Positions 1-23,433 of a stretch of 53,982 bases of DNA are shown here, in pieces. The notes beneath the pieces are model-generated. The model was given only the letters and a program-made list of their open reading frames with translations. It did no database searches and was not told the origin of the DNA. Made by a program: the position numbers and the translations under genes. Numbering within the stretch: position 1 is the stretch's first letter; every line of letters begins with the position of its first letter. This DNA is from Pseudomonadota bacterium (GTDB lineage Bacteria; Pseudomonadota; Gammaproteobacteria; Burkholderiales; Burkholderiaceae_C). Location of the stretch: contig JAEZEB010000255.1 in assembly GCA_023438115.1 (NCBI GenBank), forward strand, positions 1 to 53,982, read 5' to 3'.

Positions 1-2
1 CG

Positions 3-1106: not shown

Positions 1107-1125
1107 GCGGGGCGAGAATCCGCGC

Positions 1126-2906: not shown

Positions 2907-2928
2907 ACGAGACACCTGGAGAGAACGA

Positions 2929-4461
<1,533 letters not shown>

Positions 4462-4484
4462 ACCGTGAGAAGGAAGGAACCGCC

Positions 4485-5105
4485 ATGGCACTGACGCTCC
4501 ACTACCACCCGTATTCCCGCGCGGCCGGCACCCTCTGGGCGCTGGAAGAGGCGGGACAGCCCTATGAACTGAAGGTCGTCGACATCCTCAAGGGCGAGCA
4601 GAAGAATCCTTCGCTGCTGGCGATCAACCCGATGGGCAAGCTGCCGACGCTGGTCGACGACGATGTCGTCATCACCGAGGCCGGCGCGATCGCGCTCTAC
4701 CTCGCGGACCGCTACGCAGCCGGCCGCCTGGCGCCCGCGCCGGACGATCCGCGGCGCGGCACCTACCTGCGCTGGTCCTTCTTCTCGCCCAGCGTGATCG
4801 AGCCCGCCGTCATGGCGAAGGGTTCCGGCTGGGAGGTGAAGGAAGTGTCCGCCGGCTGGGGCACCTATCCCGCCATGATCGCCGCGGCGCAGAGCGCCAT
4901 CGCCAAGGGCCCCTTCGTCCTGGGCGACGAGTTCTCCATGGCCGACGTCGTGCTGGGCGGCACGCTGCGCTTCATGATCGGCTTCAAGCAGATCGAACCG
5001 CATCCCGTCTTCGACGCCTACATCCAACGGCTCGAGGCCCGGCCCGCCCTGCAGCGCGCCGAAGCGCGCAACATGGCCATGCGCAAGGAGCTGGGTCTCC
5101 AGTAA
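4485..5105 (+). CDS. glutathione S-transferase family protein
   Basis: AAGGAAGG RBS then ATG 4485; INPMGKLPTL, ITEAGAIALYLAD, GDEFSMADV motifs. Confidence 0.9.
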   Translation: MALTLHYHPYSRAAGTLWALEEAGQPYELKVVDILKGEQKNPSLLAINPMGKLPTLVDDDVVITEAGAIALYLADRYAAGRLAPAPDDPRRGTYLRWSFFSPSVIEPAVMAKGSGWEVKEVSAGWGTYPAMIAAAQSAIAKGPFVLGDEFSMADVVLGGTLRFMIGFKQIEPHPVFDAYIQRLEARPALQRAEARNMAMRKELGLQ

Positions 5106-5113
5106 GAAAAATC

Positions 5114-7158
5114 ATGTTCACCAAGATCCTGATTGCCAACCGCGGAGAGATTGCCTGCCGGGTGATCGCAACCGCCAAGAAGATGGGCATCGCCACTGTC
5201 GCCGTGTATTCCGAGGCGGACCGCGATGCCCGCCACGTGGCGCTCGCCGACGAAGCCGTCCCCATCGGCCCCGCGCCCTCGCGCGAGAGCTACCTGGTCG
5301 CCGACAAGATCATCGAGGCGGCGAAGAAGACCGGCGCGCAGGCCATCCATCCCGGCTACGGCTTCCTGTCGGAGAACGAGGGCTTCGCCAAGCGGGTGGA
5401 GGAAGAGGGCCTGGTCTTCATCGGCCCCAAGCACCATTCGATCGCGGCCATGGGCGACAAGATCGCCTCCAAGAAGCTGGCGAAGGAGGCCAAGGTCAAC
5501 ACGATCCCGGGCTGGAACGACGCGATCGAGTCCGCCGAGCGCGCGGTGCAGATCGCCCGCGACATCGGCTACCCCGTGATGATCAAGGCTTCGGCCGGTG
5601 GCGGCGGCAAGGGCCTGCGCGTGGCTTACGACGACAAGGAAGCCCTGGAAGGCTTCACCTCCTGCCGCAACGAGGCGCGCAACAGCTTCGGCGACGACCG
5701 CGTCTTCATCGAGAAGTTCGTGGAGGAGCCGCGCCACATCGAGATCCAGGTGCTGGGCGATGCGCACGGCAACGTGATCTACCTGAACGAGCGCGAGTGC
5801 TCCATCCAGCGCCGGCACCAGAAGGTGATCGAGGAGGCGCCGTCGCCCTTCATCAGTGAGGCCACCCGCAAGGCGATGGGCGAGCAGGCCGTGGCGCTGG
5901 CCAAGGCGGTGAAGTACCAGAGCGCGGGCACGGTGGAGTTCGTGGTCGGCAAGGACCAGTCCTTCTACTTCCTCGAGATGAACACCCGCCTGCAGGTGGA
6001 GCACCCGGTGACGGAGTGCATCACCGGCCTGGACCTGGTGGAGCTGATGATCCGCGTCGCGGCCGGCGAGAAGCTGCCGATCGCGCAGGCCCAGGTCAAG
6101 CGGGAGGGCTGGGCGATCGAGTGCCGCATCAACGCGGAGGATCCCTTCCGCAACTTCCTGCCCTCGACGGGTCGGCTGGTGCGCTTCCAGCCGCCCAAGG
6201 CGGGCATGTGGGCTTCCGACACGGAGCACCTGCTGGGCGTGCGCGTCGACACCGGCGTGGGCGAGGGCGGCGAGATCCCGATGTACTACGACTCGATGAT
6301 CGCCAAGCTGATCGTGCACGGCACCGACCGCGCCGACGCGATCGCGAAGATGCGCGAGGCGCTCGACGCCTTCGTGATCCGCGGCATCGCGAGCAACATC
6401 CCCTTCCAGGCGGCGCTGCTGGCGCATCCGAAGTTCGTGTCCGGTGACTTCAACACGGGCTTCATCGCGGAGCACTACGCGGGCGGCTTCAAGGCGGAGG
6501 ACGTGGTCCACGACGATCCCGACTTCCTCGTGGCGCTGGCCGCCTATGCCAACCGGCGCGCGCTGCAGCGCTCCGCCGGCATCGGCGGGCAGCTGCGCGG
6601 GCACGAGTTCCGCGTCGGCGAGGAGTTCGTGGTGGTGAAGCTGGATGCCGAGGGCCGGCACGAGCGCCAGGCCGCGAAGGTGAGCGACTTCGAGGCGAAG
6701 TCGGGTTCCAGCGTGGTGGAGACCAACGGCCGCCGCTACGCGATCTGCAGCAACTGGCACCTGGGCGGCGCCCGCATCCGCGGCACCGTGGACGGCCGCG
6801 CCTTCACCGCGCAGGTGGAGCGCGGCGTCGGCAAGAACCCGCTGGCCATCCGCATCGTGCACCACGGCGCGCGCCTGGACGCGATGGTGCTCACGCCGCG
6901 CACGGCCGAACTGCACGCGCTGATGCCCTTCAAGGCACCGCCGGACATGAGTCGCTTCCTGCTCTCGCCGATGCCGGGCCTGCTGGTGGATATCGCCGTG
7001 CAGCCGGGGCAGAAGGTGCAGGCGGGCGAGCGCATCGCCGTGATCGAGGCGATGAAGATGGAGAACGTGCTGTTCGCCGCGGCGGACGGCGTCGTGGGCA
7101 AGGTGCTGGCGGGCAAGGGCGAGTCCCTCGCCGTCGACCAGCCGATCGTGGAGTTCGA

Positions 7159-7162
<4 letters not shown>
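5114..7162 (+). CDS. pccA: propionyl-CoA carboxylase alpha subunit (biotin carboxylase + biotinyl domain)
   Basis: [41 protein letters not shown] biotin attachment site. Confidence 0.94.
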
Positions 7163-7644
<482 letters not shown>

Positions 7645-7786: not shown

Positions 7787-9169
7787 ATGGACAAGGCGCC
7801 GCCCCAACTCCTCTCCGCTGCCGCCGCGACGGCGCCGGCGGATGCCGTGCTGCGTTGCCAGGCGGCCTTGCTGGCGCGCGAAGGACTGGCTGAAGCGGCG
7901 ACGGCGCTCGCCGCGGAACTCGCCACGCTCCTGCGTTGCACCCGCGTGAGCGTCGGGCTGCTGGAAGGCGAGCGCCTGCGCGTCGCGGGCAGCTCCCAGG
8001 TCGCCGACCTGGATCCGCGCCACGACACCGCCGCGGCCCTCGTCGCCGCGATGCACGAATCCATCGACCAGGGCCTCGCGGTCTGCTGGCCACCGCTGGC
8101 CGCGCAGCCGCCGGTCGGCATCGCGCAGCGGCAGCTCGCGGGTGCGGGCCACGCGTGCAGCGTTCCCCTCGTGGCGCAGGGCAGGGCGATCGGCGCGCTG
8201 ACACTGGAACGGTCCGACCCGCCGGCTTTCACCGCCGCGGAGATCGCCCTGTGCGAGGACGCGGCGAGCTTCGCGGGCCCGGTGCTGCTGTTGAAGCAGG
8301 AACGCGAAGCGCCCTGGCATGCGCGTGCGCTGCAGCGCCTGCGCGGACGGCTGGCCACGCGCAGTCGCAAGCGCACCGCTTGGGCCGGTGCGGTGGTGAT
8401 CCTGGCGCTGCTGCTCGCGGTGCCGCTGCCCTAGCGCGTCAGCGCGCCCGCGCGGCTCGAAGGCGCGGTGCAGCGCGCGGTGGTCGCCGCGGCCGACGGC
8501 TTCCTGCAGCAGACCCACGTGCGTCCCGGCGACCGCGTGCGCGCCGGCGAGGTGCTGGCCCAGCTTTCCTCGCAGGACCTGGAGCTCGAACGGCGCCGGC
8601 GCGAAAGCGAGCTGCGCCAGCACGAGAACGCCTACCGCGCGGCACTGGCGCGCAACGACCGCGCGCAGATGGTGGTGAGCCAGTCGCGCGCCGCGCAGGC
8701 GCAGGCCCTGCTGGCGCTGGCGGAGACGCAGCTCGAACGCAGCCGGCTGGTTGCTCCCTTCGACGGCGTCGTGATCAAGGGCGACCTCACGCAGAACCTC
8801 GGCGCGCCGGTGCACAAGGGCGAGGTGCTGATGCTGCTGTCGCCCAGCGACAGCTTCCGGCTGATCGTGGAGGTGGACGAAGGCGACATCGCCGCGGTGC
8901 GTCCCGGGCAGGGCGGGCGGCTCGCGCTCGCGGCGCGGCCCGAGGCGGCGCTGCGCTTCACCACGCGCCGCGTGGTGCCGCTCGCCACCGCGGCGGACGG
9001 CCGCAACTACTTCGAGGTGGAGGCGGCGCTGGAGGACGCGCCGCCGGACCTGCGGCCGGGCCTGAGCGGCGTGGCGAAGATCGAGGTGGGCCGGCGTTCG
9101 CTGGGATGGCTGCTGTTCCACCGCGCGGCGGACTGGCTGCGGATCGCACTCTGGACCGTGCTGCCGTGA
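7787..9169 (+). pseudogene. GAF-TM-HlyD/RND periplasmic adaptor interrupted by an in-frame TAG at 8432-8434
   Basis: ORFs 7655..8434 and 8468..9169 share one frame; reads ...LLAVPLP*RVSAPARLEGAVQRAVVAAADGFL...; GAF-like (RVSVG, ACSVPL..GRAIGALTLER), TM helix, barrel-sandwich (VRPGDRVRAGEVLAQL, LVAPFDGVV), LRPGLSG. Confidence 0.8.
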
Positions 9170-11316
9170 CGCCGCCGCTGGTCAGCGCGTCCTGGTACCG
9201 CGTGGCCACGCTCAAGCCGGCGCTCGTGCCCGGGCTGCGCATCGTGCGCCAGCGCGTGCGCGACCAGCTGTGGCACGTGCTGGTGGAGCCCGGCTCCGGC
9301 CGCCAGCTGCGACTGAATCCCGCCGCCTATGCCTTCGCCGGCCGCTGCGACGGGCGCGCGAGCGTCGAGGAACTCTGGCAGCTGCTGCTGCGCGAACAGG
9401 GCGAGGACGCCCCGGCGCAGGACGACGTGCTGCGCCTGCTCGCGCAGATGTTCCGCGCCGGCATGCTGCAGTTCGATGCGGCGCCGCACCTGTCGCTGCT
9501 GTTCGCGCGGCGCGAGGAGGACGAGGGACGCAAGCGCCGCGCCTTCATCAATCCGCTGATGCTGCGCATGCGGCTGTTCGATCCCACGCGCATGCTGGAC
9601 CGGCTCGCGCCGCTGGGGCGTGCGCTGGCCGGCTGGCCGGCCTTCGCGTCGTGGCTGGCGCTGGTGCTCCTCGGCGCACTGGCCGCGGCCATCGCGCTGC
9701 CGCAGTTGCGCGCCGACGCGCTGCGGGTGCTGGCCACGCCTTCCAGCTACGCGGTCGCGTGGTTCGCCTATCCGCTCGTGAAGTCGCTGCACGAACTCGC
9801 CCATGCGCTGGCCGTGCGGCGCTTCGGCGGCAGCGTGCACGAGGTGGGCATCTCGCTGCTGATGCTGACCCCCGCGCCGTATGTCGACGCGAGCGCCGCG
9901 AGCGCGTTTCCGCTCGCGCGCCAGCGCGCGCTGGTGAGCGCAGCGGGGATCATGGTCGAACTCGCGCTCGCCGCCCTGGCGCTCGGTGCCTGGAGCGTGC
10001 TCGCGCCCGGCTTCGCGCGCGATGCGGCCATGGTGGTGGTGCTGATCTGCTCGGTGTCCACCATCGTCTTCAACGCCAATCCGCTGGTGCGACTGGACGG
10101 CTACCACCTGCTGTGCGATGCCTTGCAGCTGCCCAACCTGGCCACGCGCAGCCAGGCTTGGTGGGCCTCAGCCTGGCGCCGCCTGGTGGGCATGGAGCAG
10201 GCGCTGCCGCCCGGCGCGCTGGCCCGCGGCGAAACGAAGTGGCTGGTGGCCTATGCGCCGATGTCGTGGGCCTACCGCGTCGCCCTGCTGTTCGCGCTGG
10301 TGTTCTGGGTGGGCCACCATTCCTGGCTGCTGGGCGCGGTGGCCGCGGCGGCGCTGCTCGCCTGGGGCGTCACCGTCGGCGTGCGGGCGCTGCTGCGGTC
10401 GGCGGCCGGCGCGCCGGACCTCGCATCGCGGCGGCGAACTTTGGTGACGGCCGCAGGCATCGGGGGCCTGCTGCTGCTGGCGCTCTTCGTTGTTCCCGCT
10501 CCCAGCAGCGTCATCGCGCGTGGCGTGGTGTGGCCGCCCGAACACGCGCAGCTGCGCCCGGAGACCGGCGGCTTCATCGCGGAGCAGGTGGTGCGCGACG
10601 GCGAGGCCGTGGCGAGCGGCGACGTCGTGCTGCAGCTCGCCGATCCGGAACTGCTGGCGGAGCACGAGCGGTCCGCCAGCGAGCGCTCGGGCCTGCTGGC
10701 GCAGCAGTACCAGGCGCTGCTGCACGATCCGGCGCGGGCCGGCGACCTCAACGAGCAGCTGGAACGCAATGCCGCGGAGCTGCGCCACGCCGAGGCGCAG
10801 GTGGCGGCGCTGCAGGTGCGGGCGCAGGTGCCGGGGCGCGCCGTGTGGCCGCGCGAAGGCGACATGGCCGGCGCCTACGCAAAGCGCGGGACGATGGTGG
10901 GCTACGTGCTCGGACCGCATCCCGTGCAGGTGCGTGCGGTGTTGCGCGACGAGGACCTGCTGCGCCTGCGCGGCCGCGTGCGCTCGGCGGAGGTCCGTCT
11001 CGCGTCCGCGCCCGGCATCACGCACTCCGCGACGCTGGGGCAGGAAACACCGGCCGCCACGCGCGAGTTGCCCAGCGCCGCGCTCGCCGATCGCCATGGT
11101 GGCCCGATCGCCGTGGACCCGGCCGACGAGCACGGTTTGCGCACGCAGTTGCCCGTGTTCCTGCTCGATGTCGTCGTGCCGGATCTGCAGGCGGCGCAGG
11201 TCGGCGGCCGCGCCTGGGTGAAGCTGGTGCTGCCGCCCGAGCCGCTCGGCTGGCAGGCGGTGCGCACCCTGCGGCAGTGGCTGCTGCGGGACTTCAGTCC
11301 CACGGGGCAGGCGTGA
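9166..11316 (+). CDS. PqqD/RRE-like domain + M50 (site-2) metallopeptidase + HlyD-type adaptor fusion
   Basis: GTG 9166 overlaps upstream TGA; LRLNPAAYAFAGRCDGRASVEELW (PqqD-like); HELAH and NANPLVRLDGY (HExxH and NPxxxxDG); multiple TM helices; C-terminal VRDGEAVASGDVVLQL, coiled coil, VRAQVPG. Confidence 0.85.
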   Translation: MTPPLVSASWYRVATLKPALVPGLRIVRQRVRDQLWHVLVEPGSGRQLRLNPAAYAFAGRCDGRASVEELWQLLLREQGEDAPAQDDVLRLLAQMFRAGMLQFDAAPHLSLLFARREEDEGRKRRAFINPLMLRMRLFDPTRMLDRLAPLGRALAGWPAFASWLALVLLGALAAAIALPQLRADALRVLATPSSYAVAWFAYPLVKSLHELAHALAVRRFGGSVHEVGISLLMLTPAPYVDASAASAFPLARQRALVSAAGIMVELALAALALGAWSVLAPGFARDAAMVVVLICSVSTIVFNANPLVRLDGYHLLCDALQLPNLATRSQAWWASAWRRLVGMEQALPPGALARGETKWLVAYAPMSWAYRVALLFALVFWVGHHSWLLGAVAAAALLAWGVTVGVRALLRSAAGAPDLASRRRTLVTAAGIGGLLLLALFVVPAPSSVIARGVVWPPEHAQLRPETGGFIAEQVVRDGEAVASGDVVLQLADPELLAEHERSASERSGLLAQQYQALLHDPARAGDLNEQLERNAAELRHAEAQVAALQVRAQVPGRAVWPREGDMAGAYAKRGTMVGYVLGPHPVQVRAVLRDEDLLRLRGRVRSAEVRLASAPGITHSATLGQETPAATRELPSAALADRHGGPIAVDPADEHGLRTQLPVFLLDVVVPDLQAAQVGGRAWVKLVLPPEPLGWQAVRTLRQWLLRDFSPTGQA

Positions 11317-13244
11317 GCGGCGGGCCGCAGGGCTGGCCCGTTCCGGGGCCGGTCTGGGGCGAATATCCGGAGAGGGCACGGCGCCCGCGCGATCGTGTGT
11401 CGCGCCGCGGCCGCCTGGGGCGCGCCGCTTTCGAGCGCTTCGCGGATGCGGCGGCTGCCGCGATTCCGATCGCAGGATCCGAACTGGCTACGCGCCTTGC
11501 CGCGCTGCGCGAGCGCAAGCCGGACGACGGCGCCTGGCTGCTCGAAGCGGTGGTCGTCGCGGCGTCCGCCTTCGCGCTTGCCACCGGCCGCGTGCCGCAT
11601 CGCCAGCAGCTTCTCGCCGCGCGCGTGCTGCTGGACGAGCGCCTCGCCGAGATGGCGACGGGCGAAGGAAAGACAGCTGCCATCGCGATCGCCGCGGCGG
11701 TCGCTGCTCTGGCCCGCACTCCGGTCCACGTCGTCACGGCCAACGACTATCTCGCGCAACGCGATGCCGACGCGCTGCGTCCGTTCTACGCGAGCCTCGG
11801 CCTGCGCGTCGACTGCGTGACGCAGCCCCTGCAGGCGGCGCAGCGCCGCCAAGCGTACGCGGCGGATGTCACGTACTGCACCGCCAAGGAACTGGCCTTT
11901 GACTACCTGCGTGACGCGGTGGCGCGACCGGCCGACCTGTCGCCGCTGGAGCAGAGGGCGCGGCGCATGGGCGGCACGCAGGAAACGCACACGCCTGTCA
12001 TGCGCGGCCTGTGCATGGCGATCCTCGATGAAGCAGACACCGTGCTGGTCGACGAGGCGCGCGTGCCCCTGGTGTTGTCACAGCTCGAAGGCTCCCTGGC
12101 TGAGGCCGATTTCTACCGCCAGGCGCTGGCCGTTGCACAGGGCCTCGTTGCGGGCGAGGACTTCCAGCCGCGCGGCGAGGGCCGCCAGTTCGCGCTGACG
12201 CCGCGCGGCCGCCAGCGCCTGGCCGCCTGGCCCGCCGCGGACCATCCGCTGCTCGGTCACCGCGCCCACCGCGAAGCCGCCGTGGAAACAGCCCTGGTGG
12301 CGCTGCACGTGCTGCAACGCGATCACGACTACGTGGTGCGCGAGGGCGAGGTGATGCTGGTCGACGAGACCACGGGGCGTGCCGCCCCGGGCCGCGCCTG
12401 GTCGGCCGGGCTGCACCAGCTGGTGGAGTGGAAGGAGGGCGTTCCTGCGTCCCGGCGCCACTCCACCATGACGCAGCTCACGTTCCAGCGCTTCTTTCCG
12501 CGCTACCTGCGGCTGGCGGGCGCGAGCGGCACCCTGGCCGAGGCCCGCGCCGAACTGCGCCAGGTGTATGGCCTCGCGGTGGTGGTCGTTCCGCGGCGCG
12601 TGCCCTGGGGCGTGGAGCGACTTCCGACGCGCCTGTTCGAGACGAGCGAGGTCCTCTGGCCCGCGGTCGCCGTCGAGGCGACACGGTTCGCAGCGGAGGG
12701 CCGCGCAGTGCTCGTAGGCACCGAGACGGTCGCCCAGTCCGAAGCCTTGTCGCGCGTGCTGGCGCAGCGCGGCGTGCCGCACCAGGTGCTGAACGCCCGC
12801 CAGGACGGCGAGGAGAGCCGTCTCATCGCCGCGGCCGGGGAGCCGGGGCGGATCACCGTCGCCACCAGCATGGCCGGCCGCGGCACGGACATCCCCTGCG
12901 ACCCCTCGGTGCTCGCGCGCGGCGGCCTGTACGTGATCCTCTGCCAGGTGAACGCATCGGCGCGCATCGACCGCCAATTCCTGGGTCGGGCGGGCCGGCA
13001 AGGCCAGCCCGGAAGCGTGCAGCGCCTGCTGGCCGCCGACTTCCCGGTGCTGCGGCGGTGGTGGCCGGCCTGGTTCCTGCGCGCCCTGGCCCGGCCCGGA
13101 TGCCCGTCTGTCGTGGTGGATGCAGCAGTTTCCCTAGCCCAACGCAGCGAATCCTTTACGCACCGCCATGCCCGTGTGAAACTCAGCCGTATCGCGGATT
13201 CCCTCGAACGCGAGTTGACGTTCAGCCGGCAGGTGCTGCAATGA
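11313..13244 (+). CDS. accessory SecA-family ATPase (NBD1/PPXD/NBD2 only, 643 aa)
   Basis: GTG 11313 overlaps upstream TGA; EMATGEGKT, HVVTANDYLAQRD, AFDYLRD, LDEADTVLVDEAR, VDETTGR, GLHQLVEWKEG, TSMAGRGTDI, RIDRQFLGRAGRQGQPG. Confidence 0.9.
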   Translation: MSGGPQGWPVPGPVWGEYPERARRPRDRVSRRGRLGRAAFERFADAAAAAIPIAGSELATRLAALRERKPDDGAWLLEAVVVAASAFALATGRVPHRQQLLAARVLLDERLAEMATGEGKTAAIAIAAAVAALARTPVHVVTANDYLAQRDADALRPFYASLGLRVDCVTQPLQAAQRRQAYAADVTYCTAKELAFDYLRDAVARPADLSPLEQRARRMGGTQETHTPVMRGLCMAILDEADTVLVDEARVPLVLSQLEGSLAEADFYRQALAVAQGLVAGEDFQPRGEGRQFALTPRGRQRLAAWPAADHPLLGHRAHREAAVETALVALHVLQRDHDYVVREGEVMLVDETTGRAAPGRAWSAGLHQLVEWKEGVPASRRHSTMTQLTFQRFFPRYLRLAGASGTLAEARAELRQVYGLAVVVVPRRVPWGVERLPTRLFETSEVLWPAVAVEATRFAAEGRAVLVGTETVAQSEALSRVLAQRGVPHQVLNARQDGEESRLIAAAGEPGRITVATSMAGRGTDIPCDPSVLARGGLYVILCQVNASARIDRQFLGRAGRQGQPGSVQRLLAADFPVLRRWWPAWFLRALARPGCPSVVVDAAVSLAQRSESFTHRHARVKLSRIADSLERELTFSRQVLQ

Positions 13245-14164
13245 AGAAATGGGCTCGTTGGGTGGTCTTCGCGGCCGGGTCGCTCCCTGCCGCGGTCCTT
13301 GCGCAGGCGCTCGGCTGCCTGATCGAGCCCTGGCGCGTTTCCGACGTCGGCTCGCCCGTCATCGGGGTGGTGGAGTCCACGCCGGCCGAACGCGGCCAGC
13401 GCGTGCAGGCCGGCCAGGTGCTCGCCACGCTGCGCGCGGACGTCGAACGCCAGACCCTCTCCGTCGCCCAGACCAAGGCCGAAGCCATGGGCGAACTGCG
13501 CGCCGCCGAAGCCAACGCCGAACTCGCCCGGCAGAAGTTCGCCCGCGCGAAGGACCTCGCCAGCCAGAACTTCATCTCCAGCCAGGCGCTGGAGCAGGCG
13601 CGCGCCGAAGCAGCGGTCGCGGAGAACCGACTCGCGCAAGCGCGCGAGCAGCGTGACGTCTACGCGCGCGAGCACGCGCTGGCGCAGGCGCAGCTGGGAC
13701 TGCGGACCATCCGCAGCCCGATCACCGGCGTCATCGTCGAGCGCTATCTCTCCGTGGGCGAGCGCGTCGAGGAAAAGCCCGTCTACCGCGTGGCGATGGT
13801 GCATCCGCTGCGCGTGGAGGTGGTGCTGCCGGCCCATGCCTACGGCGCGGTGCGCGAGGGCATGAAGGCGACGGTGGCACCGGACTTTCCCGGCGCGAAT
13901 CCGCGCGAGGCCAGGATCACGCTGGTCGACCGCGTGATCGACGGCGCGAGCAACACCTTCCGCGTCCGCCTGGAACTCCCGAACGCCGACCACGCGCTGC
14001 CCGCGGGCCTGCGCTGCACGGCGGACTTCGGTGGCGCGATCGCTCCGGCGCAGCCCGCGCGCCCGCCCGCGCCGCGCATCGCGCCGGCGGGTTTGAGCGA
14101 TGGCAACCCGCCGCGCCTGCAACTCGAGCCGGTGCGGGTGGAAGCACCGGGTCCCCGGTCCTGA
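13241..14164 (+). CDS. RND/HlyD periplasmic adaptor subunit with signal peptide
   Basis: ATGA overlap; MKKWARWVVFAAGSLPAAVLA-Q signal; GSPVIGVV..ERGQRVQAGQVLATL, IRSPITGVI, SNTFRVRLELPN. Confidence 0.88.
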   Translation: MKKWARWVVFAAGSLPAAVLAQALGCLIEPWRVSDVGSPVIGVVESTPAERGQRVQAGQVLATLRADVERQTLSVAQTKAEAMGELRAAEANAELARQKFARAKDLASQNFISSQALEQARAEAAVAENRLAQAREQRDVYAREHALAQAQLGLRTIRSPITGVIVERYLSVGERVEEKPVYRVAMVHPLRVEVVLPAHAYGAVREGMKATVAPDFPGANPREARITLVDRVIDGASNTFRVRLELPNADHALPAGLRCTADFGGAIAPAQPARPPAPRIAPAGLSDGNPPRLQLEPVRVEAPGPRS

Positions 14165-14177
14165 GGCGGAGGCGGGC

Positions 14178-17100
14178 GTGATCGACTGGTTGCGCAGCTT
14201 CCGTTCCGCTTCCCGTGCGCGCCATGCGCCGGTCGCCGAAGGCATGGAGCCGCGGCTGCTCTTTTCCGCCGACCTCGCCGGCGGCCTGCTGCTCGGCGCC
14301 GACGCCGCGGCCGGTGCCGAGCACCGCACCCTCACGGCGGCGGGGGAATACGCGAGTTCCGTAACGACGACGGCCGCGACGACCTACGCCGCACTGCCCA
14401 TGAGCTTCGAGGCGAACGCGGGGCAGGCGGGCGAGGGCATCGACTTCATTGCCCACGGCGGCGGCTACGGCATCGCGCTGGATGACGGCCATGCCTGGCT
14501 GGCGCTGGCCACCGAAAGCGGCGCGCGCACCGTGCAACTGCAACTGGTGGGCGCGCGCGAGGGCGTGCAGGCCGGAGGCGAAGGCCTGCTCGCGACGCGC
14601 AGCAACTACCTGGTGGGTGGCGAGGCCTCGCGCTGGGCGACCAACCTCGCGAACTACCAGGCGGTCGCCTACCGCGGCGTATACGACGGCATCGACGTGC
14701 GCTACTACGGCAACCAGCGGCAGCTGGAGTACGACTTCATCGTCGCCGCCGGCGCGGACGCGGGGCAGATCCGCTTGCGCTTCGACGGCGCGCAGGCGAG
14801 CCTGGATGCGAACGGCGACCTCCTGCTGCGCGTGGAGGGCACGGACAGCGAGCTGCGCTTCAAGGCGCCCGTGAGCTACCAGCGCGGCGACGACGGCGCG
14901 CTGCAGGCAGTGGCCAGCGCGTACGCGATCCACGCGGACGGCAGCATAGGCTTCGTCCTGGGCGCCTACGACCGCGGCCGCGAACTCGTGATCGACCCGG
15001 TGCTGGACTACGCCACCTACTTCGGCGGCGCGGCCAGCGAAATCGCCACCGACGTGGCCGTGGGCGCCGACGGCTTCGTCTACATCACCGGACGCACGAC
15101 CAGCGCCAGCTTCCCCGGCTTGGCCAACGAGCTTCCCGGCCAGGGCACGCGTGGCAACGGCGACATCTTCGTGGCCAAGCTCACGGCCGACCTGTCGCAG
15201 GTGGTCTGGTCCACGCGCATCGGGGGCAGCGCCGACGAACAGGCGAATGCGATCGCGGTCGATGCCAACGGCAACGTCGCCGTGACCGGCTGGACGAAAT
15301 CGACCAACTTCCCGACGCTCAACGCAGCGGACAGCACGATGGGCACGGGCCTCCTCGTTCCCGTGCAGGACGCGGTGATCTTCAAGCTGGATGCCGACGG
15401 CGGCCTCGTCTTCAGCACCTATTTCGGCGGCAACGAGGACACCGACTCGGGCAATGCCGTGGCTTTCGATGCCGCCGGCAACGTGTACGCCGCGGGCCAG
15501 GCGTCGTCGGGTGGGCTGGTTCTGCCGATCCTCTCGCCGCTGCTCGGAAGCTCGGACAACGCCTTCATCAACAAGTATTCGCCCACCGGCACGCTGCTGT
15601 ACGACCAGTTGCTGGGCGGCACGGGCGTGGACTATGCGACCGGCCTCGCAGTCGACGCCGCTGGGAACGCCTACGTGGTGGGCAGCACGCGATCCGGCAG
15701 CCTGGCGCTGAACTCGGACACGATCACCATGAACGGCGACGATGCCGGCCTGTCGGGCGCCGCCGACGGATTCCTCGTGCGCCTGGACGGCGCAGGCGAT
15801 TCCGTCTATGCCACCTTCGTGGGCGGCGGCGACAACGATGCGGCCACGGGCGTGGCGATCGCGGCGGACGGCCAGGTCTACGTGGTGGGCGAGACGCGGT
15901 TCCGCAACAGCGGCAACCTCACCACGACCACCGGTGCCTACCAGACGACGTCGAATGCCGACACCAACGACACCATCGGCTTCCTGCGGCTGTTCGACAC
16001 GAACCAGGACGGAGCGGGCTCGCTGCTGTATTCCACCTTGCTGGGGCATGAGGACGGCGACCGGCCGAGCGACGTGGCCGTGATGGACGGGCGGGCGGTG
16101 ATCGTCGGCCGTTCCAACTCGGACAGCTTCCCCACGACGACGGGCGCGGACAACGAGAACAACGCGCTGTTCGTGGTGGTGATCGATCCGGCGGGGCAGG
16201 GCAGCCTGGACCTCGTCCACGGCACCTTCCACGGCAAGGAGATGACGGCCGGCGGCGTGGCGGTGCACGGGCGCGAGGTGTACGTGTCCGGGGGCACGGC
16301 GGAAGCCGGCCACGCCATGCCGGGCGCGCACCAGGGCACGCCGTCCAACACCGACGCGCTGGTGGCCGCCTTCAACATGAACACAGCCCCCGTGCTGGTG
16401 GGGGTGAACGCGCCGGGCGCGGTGGAGGAGGACAGCGGGCGCACGTCGATCACCGTGGCCGGCCTGCTTGACGCCACCGATGCGGATGGCGACGTCGCGG
16501 GCATCGCGATCACGGGCCTGGATGCCACGCGCGGCACCTGGCAGTACACGCTGGACGGCAGCACCTGGATCGACATCGGCGCTGTCTCGGCCGGGGCCGC
16601 ACTGCTGCTGCCGGCCGACGGCATCGCCCGGATCGGCTTCACGCCCAATGCGGACTACAGCGGCACGATCGCGCAGGCGCTGAGCTTTCGCGCCTGGGAC
16701 CGGTCGGCGGGAACGGCCGGGACGCGTGTGGACACCACGCGCAACGGCGGGAGCACGGCGTTCAGTGCGGACACGGGTTCGTTCGACATGGTGGTGACGC
16801 CGGTGAACGATGCGCCGGTCGCCGTGCTGGATCGCTTCACCATCCTGGAAGACGAGAAGCTCGTCATCGCGCCTGGGGATCTGTACGGAAACGATGTCGA
16901 TGCCGAAGGCGCGCAACTGTCCATCGTCAGCGTGGGCGGCGCGAGCGGCGGCACCGTGCGCCTCAACGGCAACGGCATCAACGGCACCATCCACTTCGAT
17001 CCGGATCCCGACTTCCACGGAACGGCCAGCTTCACGTATGTCGTCAGCGACGGGGTGAACGAGGCGACCGGGACGGTGATCATCCGCATCCTTCCGGTCA

Positions 17101-19031
17101 ACGAGGCGCCGACCACGAGTCCGGTCGTGCTTCCCGACGTGGAGGAAGACGGCAGCCTGGTCATCACGCCTGGCGAGTTGCTGCAGAACGCAGCCGACGC
17201 GGAGGGCGATGCGCTGGCCATCACCAGCCTGAGCGCGAGCAACGGTACCGTGACCCTGAATGGCGACGGCACCTGGACTTTCCGTCCGGCTGCCGACTAC
17301 CACGGCAGCGTGACTTTCACGTACGGGATCACCGACGGCACCGCGACGGTGAGCGGCTCCGCGTCGCTGACGGTGACGCCGGTGAACGACGCGCCCACCA
17401 CGAGTCCCGTGACACTGGCGGACGTGGCGGAGGACGCCAGCCTCGTCATCGCGCCGGCCGACCTGCTGCGGAACGCCGGTGACGTGGATGGCGACGCGCT
17501 GGCAGTCACCGGCTTGAGCGCCAGCAACGGCAACGTGACCGCCAACGGCGACGGCACCTGGACCTTCCGTCCGGCCGCGGACTTCCACGGCGCGGTCACG
17601 TTCACGTACACGATCTCCGATGGAACGGCCGACGTGGCGGGCTCGGCCTCGCTGGTGGTGACTCCGGTGAACGATGCACCGACCAGCACGCCGGTCATGC
17701 TGGCGGACCTGGAGGAGGACGGCGCGCTGGTGATCACCCCCGCCGACCTGTTGCGGAACGCGGCGGACGTCGACGGCGATGCGTTGGCGGTCACGGGCCT
17801 GACGGCCAGCAACGGCACCGTCACCGCCAACGGCGATGGCACCTGGACTTTCCGCCCGGACGCGAACTTCCACGGCAACGTCACGTTCACCTACGGCATC
17901 AGCGACGGCAGGGCCACGACGGCGGCCACCGCGGACCTGACCGTCACGCCGCTCGACGACGCCCCGGTCGGCAACGCCGACCAGCTCGCCACGGATGCAG
18001 GCCGGCCGCTCACCATCGCCCCCGGCGCACTGGTCGCCAACGACACCGACGTGGAAGGCAGTCCGCTCTTCGTGTCCGCCGTGACGGCCGGCACGGGCGG
18101 AACCGTGACGCTCAACGCGGACGGCAGCATCACCTTCCGCCCGGATGCGGGCTTCGCGGGCACCGCCGGCTTCACGTATACCGTGAGCGACGGGTCTCTC
18201 GCCACCGTGGTGCCCGTGGCGATCGACGTGGCCGCACTGCCGGAAGCGCCTTCGCCCCCTGGCGGCACGGAGCCGACCCCGCCCGCACCACCTCCGACAC
18301 AAGAGCCGGAAGTGCCGGTCCCCGCGCCGCCTCCAGCCGCGGAAAGCCCGGCGCCCGCTCCCGTGGAAAGCGGTGCCGCATCCGCGATTCCGCCGGTGAC
18401 TGCCGCACCGGCCGCACCGGCCGCGCAACCGGAAGGCGAGAGCGCGACGGCGCAACGCGCGCCGCGGCCGACGCCGTCGTTGCAGGAAGCGCTGGGCCCG
18501 GCGCCTGAATCGCCGATCGCCACCCTCAACGCGAGCGCGATGTCCTTTGGCGCGCCGGCCGCGCGGCTGGCCTTGCAGGCCGAGGGCGGCCGGGTGGTGG
18601 ACAGCGTGGTCTTCGACCGCGCGGGCCTGCAGCTGATCGCGGCGCAGGGCACCGATTTCGCGCTGGCGCAGTTCGGCATCGAGAGCCGCTCGGGAGCCTC
18701 GCACCTCGCGGAGTTCCAGCGTTCGATCCGCTCACCCGCGTTCGAGCAGGAGTTGGACCGCCTGCGCGAAGCGGTGCGCGAGGAGCTCGATTTCGACAAG
18801 TCGGTGACGATCTCCGTCGTCAGCGTCTCTCTGGGCCTGTCCTTCGTCTACGTGCTGTGGCTGATCCGCGGCGGCGTGCTGCTCGGAAGCTATCTCTCGG
18901 CGCTGCCCGCCTGGCGCATGCTCGACCCGCTGCCCGTGCTGGCGCGTTCGGACGAGGAAGGCGAAGAGGACGACGAACCCCTGGACGCGGACGGCCCCGG
19001 CAGCCGCCACACGCTGCGGGGCTTCGGATGA
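14178..19031 (+). CDS. large adhesin-like protein: LEPRxLL-type N-terminus, SBBP-type beta-propeller repeats, cadherin-like 95-aa repeats, Pro-rich linker, C-terminal TM anchor
   Basis: GGAGG RBS then GTG 14178; [41 protein letters not shown]; repeated AVDAxGNxYVxGxT; PVNDAP..EDG..D.DGD.L repeats; [26 protein letters not shown]. Confidence 0.85.
17094..17948 (+). repeat. three near-identical 285-bp (95-aa) cadherin-like tandem repeats, flanked by diverged units at ~16800 and ~17949
   Basis: P(V/L)(N/D)(E/D)AP unit starts at 17094, 17379, 17664 and 17949; shared GGCACCTGGAC(T/C)TTCCG core. Confidence 0.9.
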
Positions 19032-21523
19032 GGTTCCTCGGCACGCGCACCTACATCGCGCTGGGCCTCGTTTCCCTGGTGAGCACGGTGCTGCTGGCCG
19101 CTTCCTTCTTCGGCCTGGTGCCGGACCGCGAGGCCGCGGTGCGTGATGGCCGTGTCGCGCTCGCCGAGGCGCTGGCCGCCTCCAGCACGGCGATCCTGGG
19201 CAGCTCCGACCCGCGGCCGCTGGAGGAAGTGCTGCGCTTCGTGCAGAAGCGCAACCCTGACCTGCGCTCCGTCGGGCTGCGCACCCGCGATGGCCGCCTG
19301 GTCGTCGCGACCGGCGACCACGCCCGCGAGTGGGTGCCGATCGCCAGCGGCGGCGCGCGCGATGCGCAGATCCAGGTGAACCTGCAGGCCGGCGGCCAGC
19401 CTTGGGGGCAACTGGAGCTGCGCTTCGAGCCGCTGGTGCCGCACGGCCTCCTGGGCCTGTTGCAGACACCGCTGGTGCCGCTGCTGGCCTTCTGCTCCGC
19501 GCTGTGCTTCCTCGGCTTCCACGTCTACCTCACGCGCGTGCTGCGGCACCTCGATCCGAGCAAGGCGATCCCGGGGCGCGTGCGTTCGGCCCTCGATGCC
19601 CTGGCGGAAGGCCTGGTGGTGATCGACCGCAACCGCACCGTGGTGCTGGCGAACGAGGCCATCGTGCGCCTGCTGGGGCGCAGCAACGAGGCGCTCACGG
19701 GCACGCCCGTGGCGGCGCTGCCCTGGCTGGATGCGAACGGCGCGCCGCTCGCGCAGGAGGCGCAGCCGTGGTCCGCGGCGCTCGCCGAGGGCCGGGTGCA
19801 GCGCAACCTGCACCTGAAGCTGCAGGACACCGAGGGGCGCCTGCGCACCTTCAGCGTGGGCTGTTCGCCCGTGATCGCCGGCGGCGGCAAGCCCTCGGGC
19901 GCGCTGATCAGCCTCGAGGACATCACGCTGCTGGAGGAAAGCCGCGTCGAGCTGGCCGAAGCGAAGGACGAGGCCGAGGCCGCGAACCGTGCCAAGAGCG
20001 AATTCCTCGCCAACATGAGCCACGAGATCCGCACCCCGATGAACGCCATCCTGGGCTTCACGGAGCTGCTGCGGCGGGGCTTCGGCAAGAGCGAGCGCGA
20101 GTCCTCGCGCTACCTGGACACCATCCACCAGAGCGGGCGGCACCTGCTGGGCCTGATCAACGACATCCTCGACCTCTCGAAGGTGGAGGCGGGGCAGCTC
20201 ACGCTGGAGACGGTGTCCTGCGCGCCGCACGAGGTGGTGCAGGGCGCGCTGGCGGAACTCGGGCTCAAGGCGCGGGAGAAGGGCATCGCACTGTCGCTGC
20301 GCCTGCTGGGGTCCGTGCCCGAGCGCGTGCACTCGGACCCCGCGCGCATCCGGCAGGTGGTGCTGAACCTCCTGAGCAACGCCGTGAAGTTCACGCAGCA
20401 GGGCGGCGTGGAAGTGGTGCTGGCCTGCAGCGACGGCGTCTACACCGTGGAAGTGAGCGACACCGGGATCGGCATGGAACCCGCGCGCGTGGAGGCGATG
20501 TTCGATCCCTTCACGCAGGCGGACGCCTCCATCACGCGGCGCTTCGGCGGCACTGGCCTGGGGCTGGCCATCAGCCGCCGGCTGGCCCGCGCGCTCGGCG
20601 GCGACCTCACGGCGACCAGCCAGCCCGGCGTGGGCACGACCATGATCTTCAGCTTCGCCACCGGCGCGTTGGAAGACGTGCCCTTGCTGGATGCGGCCGC
20701 GCTCGCGCGGGCCGCGGAGGCGCCGGCGCCGTCGGGGCGCACACGCTGGAAGATCCCGTCGGCGCGGGTGCTGGTGGTGGACGACGGCGCGGAGAACCGC
20801 GAACTGATCTCGCTGGTGCTGACGGAGCATGGCCTGTGGATCGACGAGGCGGAGGATGGCCAGGTCGCCCTCGACAAGCTGGCGGCGCAGAGCTACGACC
20901 TCGTCCTCATGGACATGCAGATGCCGGTGGTCGACGGCTACACCGCCACGCGCGAGCTGCGCCGCCGCGGCCTGCAGCTTCCCGTGGTGGCGCTCACCGC
21001 GCACGCCATGAAGGGCTTCGAGGCGGAGGTGCTGGCGGCCGGATGCACCGCCTGCCTCACGAAGCCCGTCGACATCGACGCCTTGCTGCGCGAGGTGGCG
21101 CAGCTGCTGGGGGGCGAGGCCGTCGAGGCGCCGGCCGCGCACATCGCTTCGTTGTTCGTGGAGGAAGCGCAGGCATCGGGCGCGGAAGGTCCGATCCGCT
21201 CGCGCTTCGCCGGCAACCAGAAGCTGGTGCCCATCGTGCGCAAGTTCGCCGCGCGCCTGGAGCAGCAGCTGGCCGTGGCCCGCGAGGCGATGGAGGCGGG
21301 CGACCTGTCCGAGGTCGAGCGGCTGGCACACTGGCTGGCCGGCGCCGCCGGCACGGTCGGCTACGACGCCTTCACCGAGCCGGCGCTGGAGGTGGAGGCT
21401 GCCGCCAAGGCCGGCGACGCAGCGCTCGCCCAGGCGGTCCTGCAACGCCTGGTGCGCATGGGACGGCAGCTGGAAGTGCCGGCAGTGGCAATCAACGCAA
21501 CCATGGGCACAATCCAGCCATGA
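19028..21523 (+). CDS. membrane hybrid sensor histidine kinase (TM-periplasmic-TM, PAS, HisKA, HATPase, REC, Hpt)
   Basis: ATGA overlap with adhesin; [63 protein letters not shown]. Confidence 0.92.
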
Positions 21524-23433
21524 CCGCCAGGGATTCAGGTTCGGGAGGCATGTCGACGCGCGGAGGCGAGCGCGACAGCCTGACGAGCACGCCAACGGTG
21601 TTCGCACCGGGCGAGGACAAGCTGAGCGAACAGGAACTGCGCGCGCTGTCCCCGCAGGAAGCCGTCTGGAGCCACCGCTCCGTGCCCGCGCTCTCGCAGG
21701 CGTTGATCATGATGGTCGACGACGAGATGCTGAACATCGAGATGACGCAGGCCTTCCTGATGGAGGCCGGCTACCGGCAGTTCGTCCACACCGACCAGCC
21801 CGAACAGGCCATTCCCATGATGCGCCGCGAGGTACCCGGCGTCCTGCTGCTGGACCTGAGCATGCCGCGCGTGGGCGGGCTGGAGATCCTGGCCGCGATG
21901 CGCGACGACCCCGTGCTGCGGCACGTGCCGGTGATCGTCCTCACGATCAGCACCGATCCGCAGGTGAAGCTCAAGGCGCTGGCGCTGGGCGCGATGGACT
22001 TCCTGTCCAAGCCCGTGGACCCGAGCGAGCTGGGCCTGCGCATCCGCAACACGCTTGCGGCCAGCGCGTACCGGGACTACCTGAGCCACCACGACACGCT
22101 GACCGGCCTGCCGAACAAGCAGCGCTATCGCAAGGAAGCCGCGGACGTGCTCGTCGAGGCCACGGCCAACGGCCACTCGGGGGCGCTGCTGCACATCGGC
22201 GTCGACGCGCTCGGACGCATCAACGACGCCCTGGGCCGCGCGGCGGGCGACCACCTGCTGCAGCGCATCGCCAAGCGGCTCGCGAGCTGCGTGCAGACCG
22301 AGGCCGGTGGCGAGCTGTCCTCGGAGCAGCACCAGCCGACGCTGTACCGTTTCGATGGCGACGAGTTCGCCGTGATCGTTCCCTACATGGAAGGCGTGCA
22401 CAGCGCCGCCGCCTTCATCAACAAGCTGCTCGAGGACGCGACCGTGAGCTACCGGCGCCACGACGCGCCGGAGCTGTTCGTCACCTGCAGCATCGGCGTG
22501 TCGGTGTTCCCGGGCGACGGGCTCGACCCGGATGTCCTGATGCGCAACGCCGGCCTGGCGCTGCGACATGCCAAGCAGGCCGGCCCGCACCGCTACGAGT
22601 TCTTCTCGCCGCAGTTCAACGAGCTGGCCAAGAGCCGGCTGGATCTCAGCGCCGAGCTGCGCCACGCGATCGGCCGCGACGAGATCGAGCTGCTCTACGA
22701 GCCGGTCGTGGAGCTCGCGACCGGCCGGCTGGTGGGCGCCGGCACCATCGTGCGGTGGAACCATGCCTCCGGCCGCGTGATCGAGGGCGACGAGCTGATG
22801 GAGCTGGCGGGCAGTTCCGAGATGGACGTGGCGCTCACCGAGTGGGTATTCGAGCAGATGCGCAGGCACGTGAAGAACTGGCGCGCCGCCGGGCTGCAGC
22901 CCGTGCCCGCGGGGGTGAAGGCGTCGCTGGCCCACATGCGGCCACGCGACCTGGCGCACCTGGCCGACGCCGCCATCGCCGGCGGGATCGAGCCGCGCCT
23001 GCTGTCGCTGGAACTGCAGCAGGTGGCGAGCCTGCAGTTGCTGCCGGCGAAGGACACGGCGCCCTTGCTGGCGCTGCGCAAGAAGGGCGTGCAGCTGTCG
23101 ATCGACCGCTTCGGCTCCACGGCATCGGTGGCGCACCTGCGCCGCCTGCCTTGCGACGAGATCAAGGTGGACGCCTCCTTCATGCAGGAGCTGGAGCAGG
23201 ACGGCACCCTGCAGGCCATGCTGCTGGGCGTGGGCGACCTGGGCCGGCGGCTGCGCCTGACCTGCGTGGCCTGCGGCGTGGACACCGCGCCCAAGCTGGA
23301 CTTCCTGCGCAAGCACGGCTGGGACCAGGCGCAGGGCCGCATCTTCTCGGAACCCCTGTCGGGACTGGCTTTCGCGGCCCGGTGGCTCACGCGCAGCGGC
23401 AAGCCGCAGCGGGTGCCCATGCCGGGCGAGTAG
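21520..23433 (+). CDS. REC-GGDEF-EAL response regulator with degenerate GGDEF and EAL domains (alternative start 21550)
   Basis: VDDE..LLDLSMP..SKP receiver; [49 protein letters not shown]. Confidence 0.88.

Follow-up and report, generated by a model that had tools for sequence, protein, structure and literature searches.

What might a membrane-bound metalloprotease, a shortened SecA, a set of periplasmic adaptors, a long adhesin and a phosphorelay accomplish together? The question is raised by a locus in the draft assembly (GCA_023438115.1, 395 contigs) of a Pseudomonadota bacterium (Burkholderiales; Burkholderiaceae_C), analysed over a window of 53,982 nt, that is, the whole stretch of contig JAEZEB010000255.1 under study, read on its forward strand. 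Seven genes, all on the + strand and termed g1 to g7, span positions 7787-23433 of this window. Their domains and motifs, together with the company that their relatives keep in other genomes, suggest that they encode a leader-guided machine for the export and processing of giant surface proteins bearing the N-terminal LEPR-XLL motif, equipped with a sensor linked to the membrane anchor of the exported protein. This is the reading towards which we lean.

Gene organization

Genes were called from six-frame open reading frames (ORFs) and their translations, and domains were assigned by Pfam and NCBIfam profile searches. The first gene, g1 (7787-9169), encodes a GAF domain, one transmembrane (TM) helix and a HlyD-type periplasmic adaptor, and contains an in-frame stop in the assembly. 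It is followed by g2 (9166-11316), whose 716-aa product joins a PqqD-like RiPP recognition element (RRE; RiPPs being ribosomally synthesized and post-translationally modified peptides) to an M50 metalloprotease of about seven TM segments and to an adaptor of the membrane fusion protein (MFP)/HlyD type, and by g3 (11313-13244), encoding a 643-aa SecA paralogue that consists only of nucleotide-binding domain 1 (NBD1), the preprotein cross-linking domain and NBD2. Next come g4 (13241-14164), for a secreted adaptor of HlyD/resistance-nodulation-division type with a signal peptide, and g5 (14178-19031), for a 1617-aa adhesin starting at GTG 14178. The set ends with g6 (19028-21523), a hybrid histidine kinase, and g7 (21520-23433), a REC-GGDEF-EAL response regulator.

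The initial annotation had described seven same-strand genes with five overlaps of 4 nt and one gap of 13 nt, as well as the domain content of their products; the former is borne out by the ORFs and translations and the latter by the Pfam and NCBIfam matches. The overlaps are found at GTGA 9166, GTGA 11313, ATGA 13241, ATGA 19028 and ATGA 21520, while g4 stops at TGA 14162-14164, 13 nt ahead of the g5 GTG, which is itself preceded by GGAGG.

Relation to a published module

A scan with g3, limited to one genome per species, led to 80 fetched loci, in which the window proteins were searched by tblastn. Relatives of g2 and g3 occur together and in the same order in 33 of them (hereafter cassette loci), with a g1 relative upstream of g2 in 28 and a g4 relative downstream in 20. 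These loci belong to four phyla (Pseudomonadota, Nitrospirota, Planctomycetota and Verrucomicrobiota), their carriers being Burkholderiales, Nevskia, Mesorhizobium, Sphingobium, an Acetobacteraceae metagenome-assembled genome (MAG), Nitrospira, Planctomycetota and Verrucomicrobiota. The SecA matches in the remaining 47 loci are not accompanied by cassette genes. The arrangement of the cassette goes beyond chance, and the synteny and co-occurrence on which the initial annotation had staked its proposal do exist, the four-gene cassette being syntenic across phyla.

The same annotation referred to reports of secondary SecA-DEAD genes located beside M50 genes and adaptors resembling those of type I secretion. 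This reference is correct and corresponds to the work of Kamneva, Poudel & Ward (2015, PLoS One; PMC4452313), whose main text describes secondary SecA_DEAD proteins devoid of C-terminal domains in the company of GAF-HlyD, Peptidase_M50(-HlyD) and HlyD/Biotin_lipoyl proteins. As far as that text goes, the module and the window share the same four proteins, the same order and the same phyla, and the g1-g7 locus is a member of it. The main text also reports OEP genes in some loci and no ABC (ATP-binding cassette) transporter, proposes the SecA domain as the ATPase and the M50 protein as a possible membrane pore, and calls the biological role completely unknown. The module itself is consequently not new, and the core of what the initial annotation had inferred (SecA as ATPase, M50 protein as pore) repeats a published hypothesis.

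With respect to that description the window is a new member, and what is added here is the RRE domain, the cargo assignment through the link to LEPR-XLL giants, the C-terminal anchor, and the kinase and regulator paired with it. The words PqqD, LEPR, cargo, adhesin and histidine kinase are absent from the main text of PMC4452313, to which the check was confined, its PDF supplements lying outside. No publication linking LEPR-XLL to the SecA/M50/HlyD module was found in a literature search covering neither subscription journals nor those supplements, and neither the RRE on the M50 protein nor the anchor-kinase pair was found in print within the same non-subscription literature. Also, no machinery for LEPR-XLL was found in the searchable literature, the NCBI description of NF012209 being outside this check.

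Association of LEPR-XLL proteins with the cassette

The g5 adhesin is built of a LEPR-XLL leader, a DUF7948 domain, SBBP beta-propeller repeats, five tandem-95/cadherin repeats, a Pro/Ala-rich linker and a C-terminal membrane anchor. The leader matches the LEPR-XLL model NF012209 at 14238-14288 (residues 21-37, motif at 14244-14273) with 19.7 bits for the whole protein and 23.1 bits for its N-terminal 60 aa, the cut-off being 17, and is proposed to be a targeting leader; g5 has no ordinary signal peptide. In the 17 leaders aligned, ExxExRxLxxAD is present without exception and all 17 match NF012209. This is the same pattern as the planctomycete ExLExRxLLA, part of the motif RRLxxExLExRxLLA that Studholme proposed in 2004 as a novel export signal (cited in a passage of PMC8567305).

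In order to assess how often such proteins accompany the cassette, ORFs of at least 300 aa in the fetched loci were tested for a LEPR-type motif at their start. The motif was recovered in 18 of the 33 cassette loci (15 judged convincing) and in none of the 47 ordinary SecA loci, which amount to 815 kb. A variant motif was detected in L016 by a looser pattern. Four of five further loci carry giant ORFs adjoining the cassette (3277, 3643, 8696 and 12548 aa) whose N-termini fall outside the fetched loci; traced in the whole genomes, each of them starts with an NF012209 match at fitting coordinates. In L002 the motif follows right after g4, in a frame broken by shifts. In total, a LEPR-XLL ORF adjoins the cassette in 21/33 cassette loci and in 0/47 ordinary SecA loci. 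The broken L002 gene (L002:10703-16349) comprises a 176-aa frame with the motif, then frames of 651 aa and 1080 aa with Laminin_G_3 and DUF2341 domains, and is followed by an integrase-like ORF; its splitting reflects either gene decay or misassembly of this long-read MAG.

The association extends to whole genomes. NF012209 scored above its cut-off in 11 of 15 cassette genomes and in none of 14 well-known genomes used as controls. In a sample of 151 genomes of the window's order, a close g2 orthologue (E 1e-77 or better) was present in 21 and NF012209 (E 0.01 or better) in 23; 18 genomes had both, three the cassette alone, five the motif alone and 125 neither (Fisher p 4e-16, a value that is overstated, relatives not being independent). 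Two of the three cassette-alone genomes hold an ORF with the C-terminal anchor described below. In a phylum-wide sample of 251 genomes, searched with profile A3, close orthologues (E 1e-190 or better) could be separated from a paralogous type of RRE-M50-HlyD protein that matches over nearly the same length (E ~1e-56 to 1e-148). Of the 31 genomes with a close orthologue, 28 had an NF012209 match, as had 14 of the 47 that carry the paralogous type alone and one of the 173 with neither, so that 42 of the 43 NF012209 genomes have the M50-HlyD family; the lone exception is 69% complete and its match marginal. In both tiers, many motif ORFs and M50-HlyD genes are found as pairs on a single contig, no more than a few kb apart, and several genomes carry four to seven LEPR-XLL ORFs for one to three cassettes.

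As far as can be judged from sequence, this co-occurrence has the form to be anticipated for a sorting signal and the machine that serves it, and the suggestion of the initial annotation that the adhesin is the cargo gains real support from it, in loci as well as in genomes. Some of the largest known bacterial proteins carry LEPR-XLL, and the genomes searched in this work contain ORFs of up to ~19,000 aa. Since 2004 the motif, in its planctomycete form, has been a novel export signal without an assigned machinery, and since 2015 the secondary SecA module has been without a substrate; joining the two supplies each with a testable answer. Elsewhere, LEPR-XLL figures only as an annotation in the accessible text of PMC10868602 and of bioRxiv 2026.03.19.712371. 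The latter describes, in the part available, Chlorochromatium giants (ORFs of 20,647 and 36,806 aa) with LEPRxLL at their N-termini, sapC and tolC flanking them and a separately acquired secA, which makes Chlorochromatium a natural place to test the link between LEPR-XLL and SecA.

The RRE-M50-HlyD protein

The N-terminal part of g2 matches PqqD (PF05402) with 41.9 bits against a cut-off of 23.4, placing the leader-recognition domain at 9274-9468 (residues 37-101), and this RRE, as covered by the N-terminal 110 residues, is conserved in all 31 sequences of alignment A1. It is predicted to be cytoplasmic, lying N-terminal to the first TM helix. The Peptidase_M50 match (26.0 bits) falls below the Pfam cut-off of 27.2, and the domain is, on its sequence, a divergent member of the family. 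It holds the HExxH zinc site, HELAH, at 9790-9804, and the second M50 motif, NxNPLxxxDG, as NANPLVRLDG at 10072-10101; the H, E and H of the former and the N, N, P, L and D of the latter are invariant in 30/30 full-length orthologues. A note of "1 TAG inside" for the orthologues of G073 and G137, considered as a shared in-frame stop, was rejected, the codon being the terminal stop.

The C-terminal half of g2 yields weak NCBIfam adaptor matches only (TIGR01843, 34 bits). In an AlphaFold2 (AF2) model with a pLDDT of 86.7, three strands and three helices in the PqqD/RRE layout are followed by a TM bundle and then an adaptor, the hairpin arms of which measure 27 and 26 residues. A Foldseek search with this model placed MexA, AcrA and MacA on top (E ~1e-12), so that the C-terminal half has, according to the model, the MFP fold; only adaptor folds appeared near the top of the search with the full model, which leaves the M50 fold without structural confirmation. 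A sequence search against solved structures returned only weak PqqD and MexA matches. Overall, g2 is a single chain in which a leader-recognition domain is joined to a conserved intramembrane protease and, behind that, to a periplasmic adaptor. A complex prediction for the g2 RRE (A1) and the adhesin leader (A2) scored 0.14 against a mark of 0.32 and, having been run without controls, counts neither way on binding.

The best NCBIfam match of g2 is NF041824, the daptide intramembrane M50 protease (residues 38-409, E 1.4e-43), and NF058609 is matched as well. PqqD-type RREs and M50 proteases of the g2 type are otherwise known from RiPP pathways, and HlyD adaptors also serve efflux pumps. These facts favour a reading in which the cassette matures or exports a small peptide or molecule, in the manner of RiPP or efflux systems, and the adhesin and two-component genes are mere neighbours. 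However, the junctions between the overlapping genes g1-g7 leave no space for a small precursor gene and none is present among them, the LEPR-XLL association holds across loci and genomes, and in L006, where the order is permuted (short SecA, adhesin, kinase, regulator and then g4), the same seven genes are still together. We regard such chance adjacency as barely credible. If instead the capture of LEPR-XLL leaders by g2 is true, a leader-recognition domain of peptide natural products would be employed on giant proteins.

The short SecA

The g3 product matches SecA_DEAD, SecA_PP_bind and P-loop_SecA in Pfam, and aligns only to residues ~61-564 of the solved Bacillus subtilis SecA chains of 780-840 aa. 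It retains the Walker A motif GEGKT (11661-11675), the DEAD motif (12027-12038), GRGTDI and GRAGRQG, the arginine-finger motif being kept, and it lacks the helical scaffold, the wing, the two-helix finger and the C-terminal tail. Its NCBIfam scores of 416-419 bits compare with SecA cut-offs of 800-814 and are far under every SecA2 cut-off. The genome contains two SecA_DEAD matches, namely g3 and a canonical SecA in a 982-aa frame on contig C110.

A SecA tree of 81 rows was built from g3, the matches in the fetched loci and the genome's own SecA. Its 45 remaining ordinary SecA rows, including the genome's own, form one group with support 100, and the cassette-linked SecAs are divided between two other groups, one of Proteobacteria/Nitrospira (25 rows) and one of Planctomycetota/Verrucomicrobiota (11 rows). 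Two loci without a visible cassette, L017 and L030, fall within the cassette-type groups; L030 is cut at a contig end and L017 has 10 kb of upstream sequence without cassette genes. In addition, 13 Actinomycetota loci from Micromonospora, Actinoplanes and Streptosporangiaceae (L018, L022, L026, L027, L031, L035, L038, L049, L051, L056, L057, L061 and L070) make up a long-branched SecA clade (branch 0.67, support 100) whose members match g3 only over residues ~95-567.

The features of g3 bear on the main rival explanation, a two-step route in which the short SecA would be a SecA2-like accessory motor to SecYEG, the RRE-M50 protein would act only as leader receptor and peptidase, and the HlyD adaptors with a TolC-type channel would carry out a separate outer-membrane step. 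The retention of NBD1, the preprotein cross-linking domain, NBD2 and all ATPase motifs is in keeping with such a role, as is the presence of accessory SecA2 proteins among the g3 matches; variants of the cassette without a second SecA could use the canonical one. M50 proteases are also, to our knowledge, established as proteases and not as protein channels, which speaks for this route and equally against an M50 portal. Yet canonical SecA engages SecY through the two-helix finger, and g3 has neither this element nor the scaffold and wing. Moreover, g3 is always encoded with three adaptor-domain proteins, no SecY or SecE copies were seen in the loci, searched with the window proteins as the only queries, and we know of no periplasmic intermediate. 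On balance this route is unlikely, and we continue to favour leader-guided export through the cassette's own proteins.

Membrane anchor and adjacent phosphorelay

The C-terminal end of g5 is a TM anchor, and Pfam detects no HemolysinCabind match or RTX (repeats-in-toxin) repeats in the protein. The conserved anchor module (18699-18971, TM helix at 18810-18866) carries the signature GLSxxYVxWLxRGG...PAWxxxDPLPxL; the order at this end of the adhesin is a low-complexity linker, a helix, the TM segment within the conserved stretch and an acidic tail. The module is common to the giant ORFs of L005, L006 and L015, and no Pfam family covers it. Low-complexity linkers precede the anchor in all four sequences compared, with varying composition and length; that the Pro/Ala-rich linker could thread a TolC tunnel is an idea only.

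Among the 151 genomes of the order, the anchor is present in 14, and the sensor region of g6 (residues 1-190) in the same 14 plus one with a weak match. The kinase match begins 60-400 nt 3' of the anchor match, on the same strand, for 16 of 18 anchor matches, and this adjacency supports the link between kinase and adhesin made in the initial annotation. Eight ORFs contain both an NF012209 match and the anchor, as judged by shared contig and frame length.

According to Pfam, g6 comprises a two-TM sensor followed by PAS, HisKA, HATPase, REC and Hpt domains. In g7 the GGDEF motif reads DGDEF (22354-22368) and the EAL signature is degenerate, reading GAGTIVRW (22735-22758); in comparison with the reference chain 5m3c, GTI, ELQQ and DRFGST replace the EAL Glu, ELTE and DDFGTG metal ligands. 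Because the catalytic signature and the metal ligands are replaced, the g7 EAL domain, as read from its sequence, cannot be an active phosphodiesterase. No RxxD inhibitory site is present in g7, and LapD is among its weak NCBIfam matches. The protein may be a binder of cyclic di-GMP (c-di-GMP) or a cyclase, judging from these residues. If the pairing is true, an adhesin anchor is genetically coupled to a sensor kinase, which offers a candidate route for surface sensing.

The ends of other cargos point in a different direction. RTX repeats, which elsewhere mark C-terminus-first type I secretion, occur at the C-terminus of some LEPR-XLL cargos (L050, L024 and L025), and this counts against N-terminal export. 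SapC-family genes (PF07277, E ~1e-72) lie inside two cassette loci, at L024:4392-5279 (Nevskia) and L025:8717-9610 (Mesorhizobium), where the adjoining giant ORFs combine RTX repeats with a matrixin-like domain; SapC is a possible additional accessory of the system and is absent from the window's genome. A Vibrio LEPR-XLL protein with C-terminal RTX repeats is likewise mentioned in the available text of PMC10868602.

These cargos could be explained by tethering and release, LEPR-XLL being an N-terminal retention tag held by the RRE-M50-HlyD protein, and M50 a release protease regulated by GAF and c-di-GMP after the logic of LapG and LapA, with export following another route such as type I secretion through RTX. 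Besides the RTX repeats, the explanation draws on SapC, which is known from a type I S-layer secretion locus, and on the GAF domain, the GGDEF protein and the dead EAL domain, which suit control by a second messenger. The window adhesin fits it poorly, in that it has no RTX repeats or ordinary signal peptide and has a C-terminal TM anchor, for which reasons it would need some N-terminus-first route. The RRE, being predicted as cytoplasmic, suits capture before export rather than retention in the periplasm, and no ABC exporter is found in the window locus or reported for the loci in the main text of PMC4452313. A tether-and-release role is very unlikely in our estimation.

Proposed mechanism

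In the export mechanism that we prefer, the cytoplasmic RRE of the M50-HlyD protein would capture the LEPR-XLL leader of the adhesin, and the short SecA, with its ATPase motifs intact, would feed the unfolded chain N-terminus first into an inner-membrane assembly. This assembly would consist of the TM segments of the M50-HlyD and GAF-HlyD proteins, a composition slightly favoured over SecYEG. The leader would sit in the membrane N-in, C-out and would be removed by the M50 site; site-2 proteases accept substrates in this orientation. The adaptor domains of g1, g2 and g4 would then form a conduit through the periplasm, leading to a TolC-type channel whose gene lies outside the locus. For the Burkholderiales subtype, tethering of the chain in the inner membrane by the conserved C-terminal anchor is envisaged; there the adjacent histidine kinase would read the state of the anchor and signal through the regulator (REC-GGDEF and a dead EAL) to a c-di-GMP output.

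Several observations weigh against this mechanism. Of the cassette loci, 12/33 have no adjacent LEPR ORF, five of them on short or cut contigs and seven with several kb of flank on both sides or downstream; with the looser pattern none was detected next to the cassette in the Planctomycetota loci L020, L028, L042 and L073, nor in L008, L032 and L036. NF012209 gave no match at E 0.1 or better in four of the 15 cassette genomes, nor at E 0.01 or better in 3/21 cassette genomes of the order sample and 3/31 of the phylum sample, and is lacking in 36 of the 78 genomes with the M50-HlyD family. In Methylobacterium extorquens, only GAF among the module genes is expressed in exponential growth, according to the main text of PMC4452313. 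Neither an ABC exporter, among g1-g7 or the Pfam-scanned ORFs flanking them, nor a TolC/OEP outer-membrane factor gene, within the locus, is present in the window; at least three full OEP genes are located on other contigs of the genome, and an OEP gene lies inside the related locus L029. Also, what is observed comprises the domains, catalytic motifs, synteny, co-occurrence of cargo with machine, and pairing of anchor with kinase; for every member, binding, leader cleavage, the membrane route, the motor role and the signal sensed are things that we infer.

To these are added relatives that dispense with the short SecA. G035 has three cassettes and two SecA-like genes, and in one of the cassettes (L093, C2:338000-352000) GAF-HlyD, M50-HlyD and HlyD genes and a giant ORF succeed each other with no SecA gene between. 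G034 and G155 possess the canonical SecA only, and yet an RRE-M50-HlyD paralogue with ~30% identity to g2 stands beside a LEPR-like giant ORF (L094/L095, C1:903000-940000, in G034; L090, C1, in G155). By eye from the translations, the G034 locus consists of an adaptor, a GAF-like gene, the M50-HlyD paralogue, a probable OEP lipoprotein, the giant ORF, a kinase and a GGDEF-EAL regulator; the giant ORF, of 4359 aa, starts with ...QLEPRFMFDG... and ends in the anchor. Because relatives without any second SecA exist, not every such system can run on a SecA motor of its own, and the short SecA is thus an accessory of one subtype, with the RRE-M50-HlyD protein as the more general partner of LEPR-XLL proteins.

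A wider proposition can be advanced tentatively, namely that LEPR-XLL (ExLExRxLL) is the targeting signal of an as yet unnamed secretion pathway of diderm bacteria, in which an RRE-M50-adaptor protein would capture the cargo, a wingless SecA would, in one subtype, drive N-to-C export through adaptors and TolC, and in Burkholderiales the anchor would be read by a kinase wired to c-di-GMP. If true, this would mirror type I secretion with the polarity reversed and a surface sensor built in.

Adaptors and surroundings of the locus

Adaptor domains occur in three of the proteins, g1, g2 and g4. The last of these matches TIGR01730 with 126.8 bits, over the cut-off of 94.9, and has a Cys just past its signal peptide, in the sequence LGCLIEP (13310-13330), that is conserved in 20 of 21 orthologue N-termini, the exception being the frameshifted locus L002. 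An assignment of g4 as a lipoprotein was considered and not upheld, the residue preceding the Cys often being D, E or R, with no regular lipobox.

In g1, Pfam recognizes GAF_3, assigned to the cytoplasm, and HlyD_3/HlyD_D23, and the TM helix corresponds to residues 198-216. The gene is interrupted in this assembly, a further point against a working export machine here, by an in-frame TAG at 8432-8434, at the end of the TM helix. The system could accordingly be out of use in this organism, the nonsense codon splitting GAF-TM from the adaptor; the next in-frame start, GTG 8468, is past the TM helix, and the adaptor would be barred from the periplasm. We consider disuse doubtful. The assembly is a draft in 395 contigs, orthologues have Tyr, His, Gln or Ala at this codon, and metagenome contigs 90-99% alike have G at 8433, giving TGG, in three of four runs (three studies; the fourth run has no matching contig there). 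Because orthologues have a sense codon and related contigs read TGG, the stop is specific to this draft assembly or lineage; it might stem from an error in the consensus or from a recent mutation, perhaps a variable one. The remaining genes are intact and their catalytic motifs conserved. This judgement on g1 is separate from the choice among the mechanisms discussed above.

The G+C content is ~70% along the whole length of the window. Upstream of g1 and 142 nt apart from it, positions 1-7644 encode the C-terminal part of a methylmalonyl-CoA mutase with its B12 domain, MeaB, a glutathione S-transferase (GST), a propionyl-CoA carboxylase alpha chain and a glyoxalase-type epimerase, a gene set unrelated to the g1-g7 module. 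The Pfam-scanned ORFs of the downstream flank encode oxidoreductases, which are likewise unrelated to the module.

Comparison with known systems

The daptide M50 protease modelled by NF041824 resembles g2 in having a PqqD-like RRE fused to a multi-TM HExxH protease. In contrast, g2 scores 149.5 bits, under the 300-bit equivalog cut-off, and bears an extra C-terminal periplasmic adaptor, and it presumably acts on proteins ranging from 1,600 to over 15,000 residues instead of on peptides of tens.

Likewise, the SecA2 proteins of Gram-positives and mycobacteria, models and structures of which match g3, are second SecA paralogues devoted to a few large or difficult surface proteins. However, they keep the scaffold and the wing and measure 762-786 aa, compared with 643 aa for g3, and they work with SecY or SecY2, whereas the partners encoded beside g3 are M50 and adaptor proteins. 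In Omnitrophota and Actinobacteria, SecA_DEAD and preprotein-binding domains without scaffold and wing form part of giant proteins and have been suggested to serve the export of these giants themselves, as stated in the accessible part of West-Roberts et al. (bioRxiv 2023.11.21.568195). In those cases SecA module and giant make up one chain; the window encodes its short SecA apart from the giant, as a protein of 643 aa whose gene shares an operon with the M50 and adaptor genes. By analogy, these fusions give an independent hint that a wingless SecA may serve the export of giant proteins.

With classical type I secretion the window shares the HlyD-family MFPs; it differs in having no ABC exporter in the locus and no RTX repeats or C-terminal signal in the cargo. 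A parallel in composition is LapA with LapBCE, LapD and LapG, with which the window shares a giant adhesin made of repeats, adaptors of HlyD type, the presumed supply of a TolC-type channel in trans and, close by, a degenerate GGDEF-EAL protein. Unlike that system, the window has no ABC exporter, no RTX or C-terminal signal in its adhesin, and neither LapG nor LapD. Its recognition element is N-terminal and the end retained would be a C-terminal inner-membrane anchor, so that, relative to LapA, the polarity of the chain would be reversed.

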